Assembly: GCA_963786955.1 (NCBI GenBank)
Contig: CAWBAT010000005.1
Coordinates: forward strand, 192,001-256,000
Direction of reading: 5' to 3'
DNA from: an uncultured Acidimicrobiia bacterium
Lineage (GTDB): Bacteria; Acidobacteriota; Terriglobia; Versatilivoradales; Versatilivoraceae
Length of the DNA: 64,000 bases
The notes beneath the pieces were generated by a model. The model searched no databases, was not told the DNA's origin, and worked only from the letters and a program-made list of their open reading frames with translations. Position numbers and translations under genes: made by a program. Below, one piece after another: positions 8,685 to 64,000 of the stretch (its first letter is position 1; every line of letters begins with the position of its first letter).

Positions 8685-9115
8685 CCTCCGACCTTAGGCT
8701 TATCTATTCGCGTTTGTCCGCGTTCATTCGCGGCCGACTTTGGAATTTCGACCTTAGACGTTGGACATTTTCTAATTTGGCATTCGTCATTCAGCATTTA
8801 CCATTTGTGACTTTTGACTTTGGACCTTCGACCTTGGACATTCATTCAGTTGGCTTTCCCCGTGTTCCCCGCGGTCCAGTTTGTTGTTTATCTTTTCGCC
8901 CTTTGCGCTATTTTGGGGATACCTTTGCATTTAGCTTTCCCCTTTTCTCTTAGACCTTTGACATCAGTCTTTGGATTTTGGACCTTAGACCTTCGACTTT
9001 GGACATTCGACCTTCGCCATTCGAATATCTATTCCCCCTTATTAAAGGGGGCGCCGGGGGATGTCCCAATTGGTGTGGATCCGCGTTTATTCGCGGCCGA
9101 CTTTGGAATTTGACT
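8685..9115. repeat. Modular intergenic repeat block (heptamer tracts plus 9-10 bp motifs)
   Basis: TTAGACC/TTCGACC/TTGGAC heptamers, CCCCGTGTTCCCCG, CCGCGTTTATTCGCGGC and CCCCCTTATTAAAGGGGGCGCCGGGGGATGTC. Confidence 0.85.
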
Positions 9116-9120
9116 TTTCA

Positions 9121-9149
9121 TTAACAGCTCCGCAAAGAGTATATATAAT
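9121..9149 (+). promoter_or_regulatory. Sigma70-like promoter of the toxin-antitoxin pair
   Basis: TTAACA (9121-9126), 17-bp spacer, TATAAT (9144-9149); GGAGG RBS at 9156-9160 before ATG 9168. Confidence 0.6.
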
Positions 9150-9167
9150 TGTTCGGGAGGCCCATCA

Positions 9168-9386
9168 ATGACGAATCTGCTCAAGGAAGCTTTTGCGAAG
9201 GCTGCCCTTTTGCCCGTTGAGTTGCAAGATTCATTGGCACAAACACTCCTCACCGAACTTGAGGCGGAATTTCAGTGGGATGACAATCTGGCGAAATCTC
9301 AGAGGCTACTCGATGAACTGGCGGAGCAAGCGCTGAAAGAAGACAAAGAGGGCAAGACCCGAAGCCTGGGCTTTGATGAACTGTGA
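9168..9386 (+). CDS. Type II antitoxin (small acidic protein)
   Basis: 72 aa, acidic, LLKEAFAKA..LP..QD...WD pattern; overlaps the toxin start by 4 bp. Confidence 0.7.
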   Translation: MTNLLKEAFAKAALLPVELQDSLAQTLLTELEAEFQWDDNLAKSQRLLDELAEQALKEDKEGKTRSLGFDEL

Positions 9387-9685
9387 ACTCGCGGCTGACT
9401 GAAGAATTCATCAGGTGCTTTCGCCACTTGCCTGCGCGTATTCAGGCCCAAAGCCGCAAGAGCTACAAGTTTTGGAGGGAGAACCCGCGACATCCAAGTC
9501 TCGATTTCAAGCGGGTGAGCCTGAAACTTCCGATATACTCGGTTCGTGTTGCCATTGGCTGGAGGGCTTTGGGGCACCTGAAGGACGAAACAATCGTTTG
9601 GTTTTGGATAGGATCGCATTCAGACTATGACGGGCTCTTGAAACGCATCAGAGAAGAAACCCCTGAGTACAGCCCTCCTCTCTGA
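9383..9685 (+). CDS. RelE/ParE-superfamily type II toxin
   Basis: 100 aa, basic, with ENPRHPSLDFKRV, YSVRV..GWRALG and WFWIGSHSDYD. Confidence 0.8.
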   Translation: MNSRLTEEFIRCFRHLPARIQAQSRKSYKFWRENPRHPSLDFKRVSLKLPIYSVRVAIGWRALGHLKDETIVWFWIGSHSDYDGLLKRIREETPEYSPPL

Positions 9686-9689
9686 GTAT

Positions 9690-9960
9690 CCTCATGACGT
9701 TTTTCCTCCTCCTTTTCTTTCCCCTCGTCGCTTCATTTCCGTCTTTAGACCGTTGACCTTCGACTTTGGACTTTTTTACACTCGACTTTGGACATTCATT
9801 CAGTTGGCTTTCCCCGTCTTCCCCGTGGTCCAGTTTGTTGTTTATCTTTGCGGTTTTTGCGCTCTTTTGCATCAATCCTTGCTTTAGGCTTTTCCCTTTT
9901 CATTCGACAATCGCCATTCGGCAATTGTCAGACCTTCGACTTTGGACTTTTTTCGGCCTT
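9690..9960. repeat. Modular intergenic repeat block
   Basis: Shares about 60 bp (9788-9849) nearly identically with 8834-8895; heptamer tracts and TTTGCG motifs. Confidence 0.85.
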
Positions 9961-61618: not shown

Positions 61619-61676
61619 GACTCGACATCATAGCCAAGTCAGTAATATAAGTAAAGTTATTTATGACGCATACCAC
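60542..61676 (-). mobile_element. IS630-family insertion sequence
   Basis: TA duplication at 60540-60541 and 61677-61678 in a CTAG site; imperfect TIRs GTGTAGTGCGTC / GTGGTATGCGTC. Confidence 0.9.
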
Positions 61677-61894
61677 TAGTTTCCCGAATTTTCTTATTCC
61701 CAAGAGTATTTCAACTGAGCTCGCAATCTATAGGTATCCTCAAGAAAACACAACGGATGTTGCGCCCATTCTGCATGGCCGGTTAGTGCCATTTTTTCAA
61801 AGTGATTTTATGGGAGGCTCGTGCCATATCAGGCGGGAGCTATGATTAACGGGGAATTGCTGCATTCATTTTAGGGTAGGAAATCGTATCGAAG

Positions 61895-62611
61895 TCATTC
61901 ATATTTTCCTGCGGATTTGACTCGAGTTTCCGGCGGACTAACCAATTTCTGGCGATAGGCAAAAATGATAAGCTCAAACCGACTAGTGACTTCCAGCTTG
62001 CTGAAGACCGAGGTGAGATGGTGTCGGACGGTCGTTTCACTGATAAAAAGACGGTTGGCAATGTCTTTGTTCTTGAGCCCGGCAGAAACAAGATCGAAAA
62101 CCTCGCGCTCCCGGGCGGTAAGCAAAGAAATGCCAGGAGAGGCAGAGGTCTTCTTTTCCCAAAGGCTCGGCTGCGACATCTTAGTAATGATGCCCGTTGC
62201 CAGCTTGCGGTTTAACCAGATCTCTCCGGAGTGAACCTTCAGAATGGCTCTGCGTAATTCTTCGGGCGCTTGCTCCTTTAGTACCAAACCCATGGCTCCA
62301 ACAAGAATCGCCTGGTGGTGAGCATCTGAGTCGTTCACCGAAGTCAAAACGATGATACGCCCTCCTTCGGATGCCTCTTGCAAATCAGGGATGCAGTCTA
62401 TGGCACTGCCGGCACGTCCTAAATCGAGGTCAATCAAGATAATTTGGGGCTTCTCGCGGGCTGCAATCACATGAGCCTCAACGGGAGTTCCAGCCTCCCC
62501 GATCACCTTCATACCTAGCCAGCTTTCGATCAGCAGGCGGAGGCCTGCACGAACGATCTTCTGGGGATCAACGAGCAGGACCCGAATTGAAGGTTTTCCG
62601 CCGGAGGACAT
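61895..62611 (-). CDS. NarL/LuxR-family response regulator
   Basis: Receiver domain (LIDLDL, VLTS, VLK) plus LTAREREV..GLKNKDIA..LFISETTVRHH HTH. Confidence 0.9.
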   Translation of the reverse strand: MSSGGKPSIRVLLVDPQKIVRAGLRLLIESWLGMKVIGEAGTPVEAHVIAAREKPQIILIDLDLGRAGSAIDCIPDLQEASEGGRIIVLTSVNDSDAHHQAILVGAMGLVLKEQAPEELRRAILKVHSGEIWLNRKLATGIITKMSQPSLWEKKTSASPGISLLTAREREVFDLVSAGLKNKDIANRLFISETTVRHHLTSVFSKLEVTSRFELIIFAYRQKLVSPPETRVKSAGKYE

Positions 62612-62864
62612 GTGTGACTATAGCTTCCCTAGTTCGAAGTAAATGATTCCAAGCTTACTATTTTCACTATTACGCTGCTGCGGCTGAGGATTTTATAACC
62701 CACAGTACGCCAATATTAGAGCATTCTTTGGACCGTATTGGAAGTTTCACAAAGCAATAAAGCTCCACAAGGTTATCTATTGATTTGAAATCGCTTGAAG
62801 TAGGAAAACAGAGCCACGTTAAGCGCTTTGTGCGAGACGTGGACTTTTCTAACAGCGCATTTCA

Positions 62865-63425
62865 CCGCAAAGAACGCAAAGGTCACAAAGATAAACAACA
62901 ATAAACCACGGGGAACACGGGGAAAGCTACGATAGCCTCAAATGGACGCAAATGAACGCGGATCAAAACCAGATCACAGATTAAAGGTTGAGGTTAAAAG
63001 TCCAAGGTCTAAGGTCAAAGGTCAGAAAGTCTAAAGCTTAAAGCGAAAGCTAAAAGCAAATATTGCCGCAAAGGAGCGCAAAGGACGCAAAGATATACAA
63101 CAAATTGAACCACGGGGAACACGGGGAAAGCTACGATAGCCGCAAATGGACGCAAATAAACGCGGATCAAAACCAGATCACAGATTAAAGGTTGAGGTTA
63201 GAAGTCCAAGGTCTAAGGTCAAAGGTCGAAAAGTCTAAAGCTTAAAGCGAAAGCTAAAAGCAAATGTTGCCGCAAAGGAGCGCAAAGGACGCAAAGATAA
63301 ACAACAAATTGAACCACGGGGAACACAGGGAAAGCTACGATAGCCGCAAATGGACGCAAATAAACGCGGATCAAAACCAGATCACAGGTTAAAGGGCGAA
63401 GTTAAATGTCCAAAGTCTAAGGTCA
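62865..63425. repeat. Tandem repeat with a 204-bp period, about 2.7 copies, built from the modular motifs
   Basis: CCACGGGGAACAC starts at 62906, 63110 and 63314; units are nearly identical. Confidence 0.92.
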
Positions 63426-63579
63426 AAAGCCCAAAGTCAAGGGACAAGAGTTCGGAGTCCTGAGTCAGGAGCACGGAGTCATAATTTGATAATGCCAATT
63501 GAAGCTATTATTTTTGCTTCTGCTGACTGCCTACTGCCTACCGGACTCCGGACTCACTTGGACTCCGAAACTTCGAACT

Positions 63580-64000
63580 TTAAACCTTCAGGTTGCATTT
63601 CTTGACTTCGTCGGCGATGAACGACGCCGTTCGGACTGCGAGCGCCATAATCGTCAGTGTCGGATTTTTTTCAGGATAGGTTGTAAAGGCGCTCCCACCG
63701 ACAACAAACAGATTCTTCACTTCACGAGCCTGGCAATAGGAATTTAAAACTGAAGTTCGTTTGTCTTTGCCCATGCGCACGGTGCCTGCTTCGTGGCTTC
63801 CAAATCCTCCAGGCTCAGACATGGTATTTACAATATGCCTAGCCTTCGCTTCAGTCAGAATTTCCTGGGCCTTGGCTACAATATCTTTCCAAAGTGCGAT
63901 GTCATTTTCACAGAAACGAAAGTGCAATACGGGAATCGGAATCCCATACGCGTCCAAACGAGTGCGATCGACTGTAACCCGATTCTCCGGCCGGGCCAGC
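63580..64000 (-). CDS. GMC oxidoreductase, C-terminal part (gene begins outside the window)
   Basis: HEAGTVRMG, NLFVVGG and KNPTLTIMALA motifs. Confidence 0.85.
   Translation of the reverse strand, partial: LARPENRVTVDRTRLDAYGIPIPVLHFRFCENDIALWKDIVAKAQEILTEAKARHIVNTMSEPGGFGSHEAGTVRMGKDKRTSVLNSYCQAREVKNLFVVGGSAFTTYPEKNPTLTIMALAVRTASFIADEVKKCNLKV

Follow-up and report, generated by a model that had tools for sequence, protein, structure and literature searches.

Among the described kinds of bacterial intergenic repeat, two offer the closest parallels to the repeats reported here. REPIN-RAYT elements consist of two inverted arms that fold around a variable spacer into a hairpin, many copies being empty and a rare enzyme gene having these repeats on either side, as set out in the available part of the source (PMC3116915). 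Neisserial intergenic mosaic element (NIME) arrays are described, likewise in the part of the paper available, as long mosaic intergenic arrays beside surface-structure genes. The hypothesis there is that the arrays promote exchange with DNA entering the cell and are themselves enlarged by it, and of 19 tbpB fragments 13 ended in or close to such an array (PMC1797815). These arrays are built on one palindromic 20-mer (dRS3) and, in the same portion of the text, are said not to occur outside Neisseria (PMC1797815). Here we describe chains of short repeat modules in a surface-polysaccharide locus on a 64,000-nucleotide stretch of DNA (the window), positions 192,001 to 256,000 of contig CAWBAT010000005.1 (assembly GCA_963786955.1), from an uncultured bacterium deposited as Acidimicrobiia and placed by GTDB in the Acidobacteriota.

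With moderate confidence, we propose that these chains are REPIN/NIME-like mosaic arrays of nuclease-associated arms, and that they are both scars of gene exchange and substrates for it. They may stand at the junctions where polysaccharide genes are exchanged for one another. The modules of the chains would be terminal arms drawn from small two-armed elements of at least three families, distinguished by a 9/10-mer tandem arm found with GxxExxY genes (PD-(D/E)XK nucleases), a C-run hairpin arm found with DUF559 (Vsr-like) genes, and a heptamer tandem arm.

Repeat Chains in a Surface-Polysaccharide Locus

The window carries a Wzx/Wzy surface-polysaccharide locus on its minus strand, with a UpxY-family antiterminator at its head that has a homolog of 70% identity in an Acidobacteriota metagenome-assembled genome (MAG), among at least 120 homologs listed; another of these, at 91% identity (P0002), is carried by a contig of 410 kb. 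The locus contains wza, wzc, gmd, fcl, a DUF218 gene, wzx, a WecA-like gene, a lasso-peptide-like cluster, a wzy-like gene and ∼22 kb of glycosyl-, methyl- and acyltransferases. Modular intergenic blocks had been predicted here from the sequence, and they are real: 14 chains of ∼120–890 bp each, together 5,358 bp in generous limits, lie between 8680 and 63590 (Table 1). The core at 28067–50871 contains no heptamer or nonamer chain and carries hairpin-type repeats only, at ∼30.1, 36.3–36.8 and 38.2–38.5 kb.

Module counts in the window were compared with the mean of 30 dinucleotide shuffles. RRRGTCN heptamer tracts numbered 33 against 0.57 in the shuffles, AGGCAGA 6 against 0.17, AAAGC tracts 11 against 0.57 and the CGCAAAG type 14 against 0.03, while CACGGGGAA doublets (8), the CGCGAATAAA type (8), GACATCCCCCGGCGC (7) and a second C-run arm (4) each had a shuffle mean of 0. 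A loose AAATGAC pattern stood at chance (18 against 10.2, with a shuffle maximum of 19), although Tandem Repeats Finder (TRF) does detect AAATGAC tracts. The module patterns were written after the window had been seen, which makes this control partly circular; TRF and a repeat finder agree with it independently.

The blocks are non-coding, as had been supposed, in that one of 111 open frames of at least 45 aa matched an NCBIfam family, weakly (E 0.04) and outside the blocks; no Rfam family and no tRNA was found in the window. They are not CRISPR arrays, given the lack of an Rfam match, the lack of a cas family in a Pfam scan of 57 window proteins, and modules that are degenerate and uneven, nor are they copies of a single MITE (a miniature transposable element with inverted repeats), because they differ in content and have no paired ends. 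Modules are indeed re-used among blocks, but their order is shuffled only in part: the run heptamer, AAAGC, CGCAAAG, CACGGGG, CGCGAAT, linker recurs because multi-module segments have been copied from block to block. Such copies span 100–370 nt at identities of up to 94%, both direct and inverted; among them are a 104-nt segment shared at 92% by two blocks that lie 17.6 kb from each other, one of 149 nt (94%) and one of 370 nt (93%).

The Chains Are Unpaired and Polarised

Within the window the arms stand almost entirely without partners. None of eight CACGGGG arms has one, and inward pairing was found for 0 of 17 nonamer/decamer and 2 of 21 heptamer TRF arrays (2/38 overall). The strand asymmetry noted in the original prediction is present, yet it is not uniform, being reversed from one side of the locus to the other, a feature that had gone unremarked. 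B1–B4, B6 and B8 (8.7–28 kb) are purine-rich on the minus strand only, B9, B10, B12 and B13 (50.9–59.2 kb) on the plus strand only, and head-to-head junctions occur inside B5, B7, B11 and B14, leaving 10 of 14 blocks with a single direction; a runs test on the dominant direction speaks for polarity (P 0.025). The direction of the operon is constant across this flip, and so the arms point outwards from the glycosyltransferase core. C-run arms within the chains follow the same direction although they are not purine-rich.

By the orientation map, none of the 13 inter-block intervals along the operon lies between inward-facing arms, and one of the four arm junctions pairs (63440–63585), the other three joining arms of different families. 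The left and right chains contain inverted copies of one another (113 nt at 81%, with many inverted matches of 60–113 nt). Eight long plasmid loci, taken as a control for polarity, yielded 15 arrays only, of which 5 were paired. GC-rich palindromes, which we take to be REP-like (REP, repetitive extragenic palindrome), occupy mosaic blocks of their own at 6850–6910, 11277–11589, 29834–30230 and 59716–60028.

Arms Pair Up in Other Genomes

The CACGGGGAA doublet (19 bases), searched for in GTDB genomes, matched at least 120 loci in Gamma- and Betaproteobacteria, Acidobacteriota, Planctomycetota, Armatimonadota, Nitrospirota and others. Among the 128 matches listed, 14 had flanks shorter than 280 nt and were dropped; for the remaining 114, an inward inverted partner lay within 280 nt downstream in 80 and upstream, on the control side, in 3. 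These matches are not independent, as several loci come from one genome, and four Streptomyces matches resemble chance hits in coding sequence. A motif-free TRF test, which left out arrays deep in long open reading frames (ORFs), near locus ends, or lacking strand asymmetry, agrees: at the GTDB loci listed, 69 of 115 nonamer/decamer arrays were inward-paired and 2 outward-paired, as were 9 and 1, respectively, of 13 heptamer arrays. Loci from a plasmid collection gave 5 of 14 inward-paired nonamer/decamer arrays and 5 of 18 heptamer arrays. Inward pairing of heptamer tracts is seen in Acidobacteriota, Bacteroides and others, and hairpin folding of five chosen arm pairs gave z scores of −3.4 to −8.6.

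Most arm pairs in the matches listed are empty, and CACGGGGAA arms also lie between unrelated housekeeping genes in many phyla. Elements of different families can be nested: in Kovacikia (L138, 7683–8231), heptamer tracts are followed inwards by a C-run hairpin pair of the type seen in the window and then by a further inverted element, all in mirror order, and two families are nested at three further loci (L018, L008 and L095). Half of such a nest is a chain of different modules in one direction, which is how the window blocks look. In a Sulfuricella MAG, nonamer arms lie inside extra outer inverted ends of a ∼165-nt family of whole elements at 11 of 12 loci (L002, L027, L032, L047, L050, L054, L060, L076, L112, L114 and L118). 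In Bacteroides finegoldii, an inward heptamer pair (L124, 10718–10830) lies within the annotated coding sequence of an FAD-dependent protein, and similar overlaps occur in other genes there.

Nuclease Genes Linked to the Arms

PF13366, the family of GxxExxY proteins, is listed as of unknown function with multiple transfers, and DUF559 (PF04480) is grouped with Vsr and a homing endonuclease, in the available part of the source (PMC3424549). At the GTDB loci listed, GxxExxY genes lie between inward arms at three loci (L010, L034 and L049), with both nonamer arms at the latter two and a 5′ arm at L099 and L109; the L034 and L010 proteins belong to PF13366 and TIGR04256. Two further GxxExxY genes with related arms were found elsewhere in the fetched loci. 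The plasmid collection held six GxxExxY matches, and of the four whose flanks were read, three have the gene between inward nonamer arms (L123, L124 and L125) and one between two complete empty pairs (L126).

The GxxExxY family comprises 14,653 clusters at 50% identity (E 0.001), with conserved residues D67, E77 and K79. Its fold is a minimal PD-(D/E)XK domain for which structure comparison gave no specific relative, the best matches (Cas4 SSO0001, BpuSI, Hjc and others) being tied at Z 6–7.8. About 12 of 60 N-termini, chosen from 150 homologs for long N-terminal extensions and judged by eye without a control, contain three-residue periodic runs such as translated nonamer arms would give. No GxxExxY match was found in phages. 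Tandem two-domain proteins also occur (P0124, P0126–P0130 and others), and P0268 is a fusion protein in which a cytidylyltransferase that serves surface-sugar synthesis is followed by a GxxExxY domain.

DUF559 genes have C-run hairpins on either side in the four plasmid records read, out of 42, and in the window itself, where the DUF559 gene at 3287–3796 is the only candidate partner-nuclease gene. This minus-strand gene sits as a spacer, at 3069–3953, in a tandem array of hairpin pairs.

Heptamer tracts are said to flank genes for four-helix-bundle proteins (23S rRNA intervening protein, TIGR02436/PF05635), a link that could not be shown here. Motif scans of the fetched loci found no partner gene for the heptamer arms, a search with a translated chain among longer proteins gave nothing at E ≤ 10, and an Atlas search gave no usable match. 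None of 30 ORFs beside heptamer arrays matched the four-helix-bundle family in Pfam and no such gene was retrieved, nothing was found in three annotated 50-kb Bernardetia stretches, and two AGGTCGA matches were perfect microsatellites with no adjoining small gene. The proposal that the blocks are footprints of several repeat-propagating systems gains support for the GxxExxY and DUF559 arms, through their arrangement elsewhere, and falls short for the four-helix-bundle link. Small genes had also been expected within the blocks, but the NCBIfam scan of open frames found none nested there, whether GxxExxY or four-helix-bundle.

Breakpoints and a Possible Route of Gene Exchange

A 26-codon stump of wzm, identical at 15 of 26 positions to a Gloeothece Wzm that is followed there by Wzt (tblastn E 1e-4), begins in overlap with the DUF218 stop codon and stops 5–8 nt short of the C-run hairpin arm in B9, at the spacer side. 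No other part of wzm occurs in the window and the gene after the chain is wzx, so that the export route seems, from gene order, to have been switched from an ATP-binding cassette (ABC) transporter (wzm) to a flippase (wzx). A probable ParE-like toxin–antitoxin pair stands between direct chain copies (B1 and B2, alike over 129 nt at 82% and 212 nt at 75%), which is the trace that integration of a circle by recombination would be expected to leave. The earlier suggestion of recombination hubs gains circumstantial support from the stump at a chain edge, from this pair, and from the three non-pairing junctions.

A DUF1670 gene pair, with a short palindrome at both ends, appears to have been inserted into an arm. 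Most of the best 120 of 606 DUF1670 homologs lie on contigs of 1–3 kb, as for multi-copy mobile elements, and the pair is possibly an unrecognised insertion element. As an engine for the chains it was rejected: the model is confident (predicted local distance difference test 83.8), yet it had no PDB match at E 0.001, no plasmid copy and no PADLOC hit.

From these observations a route can be outlined in four steps. Arms normally take the form of inward inverted pairs, mostly empty and sometimes around or beside a nuclease gene, as seen in the other genomes. Elements then land in each other's spacers, giving mirror-nested stacks, as the examples above show, whose halves are same-direction chains. 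In a third step, seen in the window, only half-stacks are left, with multi-module segments copied and the half nearer the core mostly kept. Finally, DNA may break or recombine at the side of the arms that faces the spacer, perhaps through cuts made in trans by partner nucleases; incoming polysaccharide DNA would end in outward-facing arms, and repeated exchange, together with unequal recombination between same-direction chains, could build, reorder and polarise the chains.

A more far-reaching version, which we regard as doubtful, is that small PD-(D/E)XK nucleases (GxxExxY and DUF559) and tandem arms form widespread, undescribed REPIN-like replicators without an HUH or DDE transposase, co-opted in this Acidobacteriota-like genome for directional cassette exchange. 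Cuts on the spacer side would then release nested polysaccharide cassettes with outward arms, which would replace the resident core and could even switch export from ABC transport (Wzm/Wzt) to a Wzx flippase.

Several observations weigh against reading the chains as arrays that take part in exchange. The runs test on dominant block direction (P 0.025) is post hoc, and the blocks, having been copied from one another, are not independent. A 52-nt segment of the palindrome family, 92% identical, occurs to the left and to the right of the core without a change of direction. Breakpoints can be checked at one site only, because no related locus with such chains was found. Outer mirror symmetry exceeded the shuffled 99th percentile in 10 of 87 pairs only (direct control 3), so deep nesting is uncommon elsewhere, and an ordinary transposase could move some elements, since copies of the Sulfuricella element are complete and include outer inverted ends of their own. 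Only 3 of the 128 matches listed abut a GxxExxY gene, and the fold matches of that family, all below Z 8, are uninformative on substrate. Pfam and NCBIfam scans found no GxxExxY or four-helix-bundle gene in the window, and hence no enzyme is tied to these chains. In the loci fetched, block matches stop at single modules and no multi-module chain was seen; searches of plasmids and phages (blastn) gave no match for B12 as a whole and short single-module matches only for B3 and part of B12, and UpxY homologs on plasmids offered no route to loci with chains.

Alternative Explanations

The main alternative, possible but in our judgement unlikely, is that the chains are passive debris, in which two or three founder half-stacks were spread by local duplication and gene conversion, in a locus under loose constraint, into two polarity domains without steering any exchange. 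Segments of 100–370 nt copied at 89–94%, the 204-bp tandem of B14 and the many frameshifted genes of the locus, which could reflect decay, are all compatible with this, and REP singlets are read as defunct remnants in the available part of PMC3116915. Nor are the arms enriched at polysaccharide loci elsewhere, an association that the original prediction had proposed to map: of 80 loci carrying the one module tested, 3 matched any of 18 window polysaccharide proteins and 1 matched three or more. Passive spread does not, however, account for the breakpoint on the spacer side of B9, the toxin–antitoxin pair between direct chain copies, or the avoidance of the 22-kb core by the chains, and the inverted copies shared by left and right chains (113 nt at 81%) imply that the two domains did not evolve apart.

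It is improbable that the chains serve as protein-binding arrays, or as processing or antitermination signals in a long UpxY-controlled transcript. They do fill nearly every intergenic gap in the first and last thirds of the operon, and tandem 7–10-mers would suit cooperative DNA binding. However, the pyrimidine strand would be present in one half of the transcript, the first, and the purine strand in the other, the folding of two chains does not exceed that of shuffles (z −0.17 and −0.40), and terminator-like (23 against 20.0) and promoter-like (9 against 9.7) sites between 50 and 64 kb are at chance. These opposite strands and folding values leave the earlier idea of RNA-processing arrays unsupported. 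The two chains folded were B3 and, as minus-strand DNA, B12. The same arms between unrelated housekeeping genes of many phyla speak against either role, although proteins might bind the DNA irrespective of orientation.

Less probable still is a phase-variation switch, in which left and right chains would act as nested inverted repeats that let the core flip. The many left–right inverted matches of 60–113 nt, and a few left-side genes on the strand opposite to the operon, would fit such a switch, but the identity of the matches is only 70–88%, the core genes all run in the direction of the operon, Pfam found no site-specific recombinase among the 57 window proteins, and DUF1670 has no recognisable fold match. 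That the chains are decayed copies of one known insertion sequence (IS) or MITE, or an assembly artefact, of which several frameshifts could be a sign as often in long-read assemblies, is largely refuted and scarcely credible, given blocks that differ in module content and order, copies that are 67–94% alike rather than identical, and modules that recur in independent genomes of many phyla.

If the favoured reading of the chains as mosaic arrays of nuclease-associated arms is right, a large nuclease family of unknown function (GxxExxY/PF13366), together with DUF559, would gain a concrete candidate substrate, and REPIN-like two-armed elements with enzymes other than RAYT (REP-associated tyrosine transposase) might exist across many phyla. 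Polarised half-stacks would also provide a testable route for the exchange of surface-polysaccharide genes in environmental bacteria, so far proposed mainly for Neisseria NIME arrays. Even if the chains were only debris, the pairing of arms and genes would still explain a common class of unannotated intergenic repeats.

Features of the Window

The coordinates of the chains and associated genes are collected in Table 1. The true start of the first DUF1670 ORF is probably later than listed. The lasso-peptide-like cluster within the polysaccharide locus (15027–22563, minus strand) encodes PqqD, a transglutaminase-like protein, asparagine synthase, a methyltransferase, an HprK-like kinase and an ABC transporter, with a 56-aa precursor-like ORF starting at 19717. 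Frameshifts split genes at 4007–6505, 10029–12993, 18347–19511, 26609–27878, 33017–36267 and 53073–54100, through either sequencing error or decay, and an intact IS630-family transposase gene lies upstream of the operon (60539–61618, minus strand).

Table 1. Repeat chains and associated features by position in the window; for chains, the strand is that of the purine-rich ("left arm") reading.
Feature	Position	Strand	Basis
DUF559 gene (3287–3796) in tandem pairs of C-run hairpin arms; beyond the limits of the chain region	3069–3953	−	Pfam, repeats
Chain B1, one-sided; starts at stop codon of ORF 7194–8684	8685–9120	−	Module map
Small gene and ParE-like toxin gene, probable antitoxin–toxin pair, between direct chain copies B1 and B2	9168–9685	+	Pfam, repeat comparison
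Chain B2, one-sided	9720–9960	−	Module map
Chain B3, one-sided; RNA structure not beyond shuffles	12994–13411	−	Module map, folding
Chain B4, one-sided; both C-run hairpin arm types	14606–15026	−	Module map
Chain B5; purine reading + to ∼22760, opposite after; facing arms non-pairing (z +0.98)	22590–22855		Module map, folding
DUF1670 gene pair, seemingly set within a CGCAAAG-type arm so as to split it, between B5 and B6; possibly IS-like	22788–24532	+	ORFs, Pfam
Chain B6, one-sided	24555–24655	−	Module map
Chain B7; purine reading + at 26170–26271, − at 26308–26631; facing arms non-pairing (z −0.93)	26165–26635		Module map, folding
Chain B8, one-sided; last heptamer chain left of core	27950–28066	−	Module map
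Locus core: carbamoyltransferase, glycosyl-/methyl-/acyltransferases, wzy-like gene, wzx	28067–50871	−	Pfam/ORF annotation
Chain B9, one-sided; directly upstream of wzx	50885–51105	+	Module map
26-codon 5′ wzm stump	51108–51185	−	tblastn
Chain B10, one-sided	51825–52040	+	Module map
Chain B11 and short opposite heptamer tract beside wzc stop; facing arms non-pairing (z +0.27)	54128–54435	+	Module map, folding
Chain B12, longest, one-sided, between wza and wzc; internal 149-nt duplication at 94%	56867–57752	+	Module map
Chain B13, one-sided, between UpxY-like antiterminator gene and wza	58770–59150	+	Module map
UpxY-family antiterminator heading operon	59176–59715	−	Family searches (context)
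Chain B14; 2.8 tandem copies of 204-bp multi-module unit, 93% matches	62862–63440	+	TRF
Sole intact inward-facing heptamer pair found in window; hairpin fold z −4.92	63440–63585		Folding

Comparison With Known Repeat Systems

Cyanobacterial STRR heptamer repeats are intergenic tandem heptamers, and cyanobacterial AGAAGGC tracts match one window module. In the literature searched, with partial coverage and without supplements, we found no description of repeats flanking GxxExxY, DUF559 or four-helix-bundle genes, and the arms are not described in the available parts of PMC3184786, PMC3424549, PMC3936711 and PMC5524665. The bacterial interspersed mosaic elements (BIMEs) of enterobacteria and streptococcal BOX elements are likewise modular repeats between genes, and have been connected with recombination and IS targeting (PMC3184786). 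BIMEs differ in that each is a cluster of REP palindromes, and neither tandem-heptamer or nonamer arms nor a PD-(D/E)XK partner appears in the available text of that source (PMC3184786), whereas our chains lack REP palindromes and a separate palindrome family occupies other gaps. Whole copies with terminal inverted repeats, as in a MITE, are not seen in the window but are found in the Sulfuricella family. The chains also differ from an integron cassette array in that Pfam found no integrase and their orientation relative to the genes flips.

With REPIN-RAYT, the elements share the plan of inverted arms forming a hairpin, empty copies, and singlets as remnants, as far as the available part of the REPIN-RAYT source describes them. 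They differ in having tandem 7-, 9- and 10-mers or C-run hairpins in place of REP palindromes, and in their link to PD-(D/E)XK nucleases rather than HUH tyrosine transposases; no transposase of the latter kind (RAYT) was found among the 57 window proteins, and the gene enclosed by arms elsewhere is PF13366. A further difference is that arms in the window are unpaired and stacked, pairing occurring only at 63440–63585 and in other genomes. The likeness to NIME arrays lies in the 14 mosaic chains within a polysaccharide locus, although only ∼8.6 kb of the window falls outside that locus. NIME arrays also have recombination ending in or close to them and vary among strains at syntenic places; on this trait the window offers one breakpoint, the wzm stump, at one site only. 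No dRS3-type 20-bp inverted-repeat unit is present among the window repeat families, and the available NIME text describes no polarity around a core, in contrast to the directional stacking of several arm families here. By this comparison the chains appear to fall outside both systems, as well as outside BIMEs, MITEs, CRISPR arrays and integrons, while working at the level of the element like REPIN-RAYT and at the level of the locus like NIME arrays.

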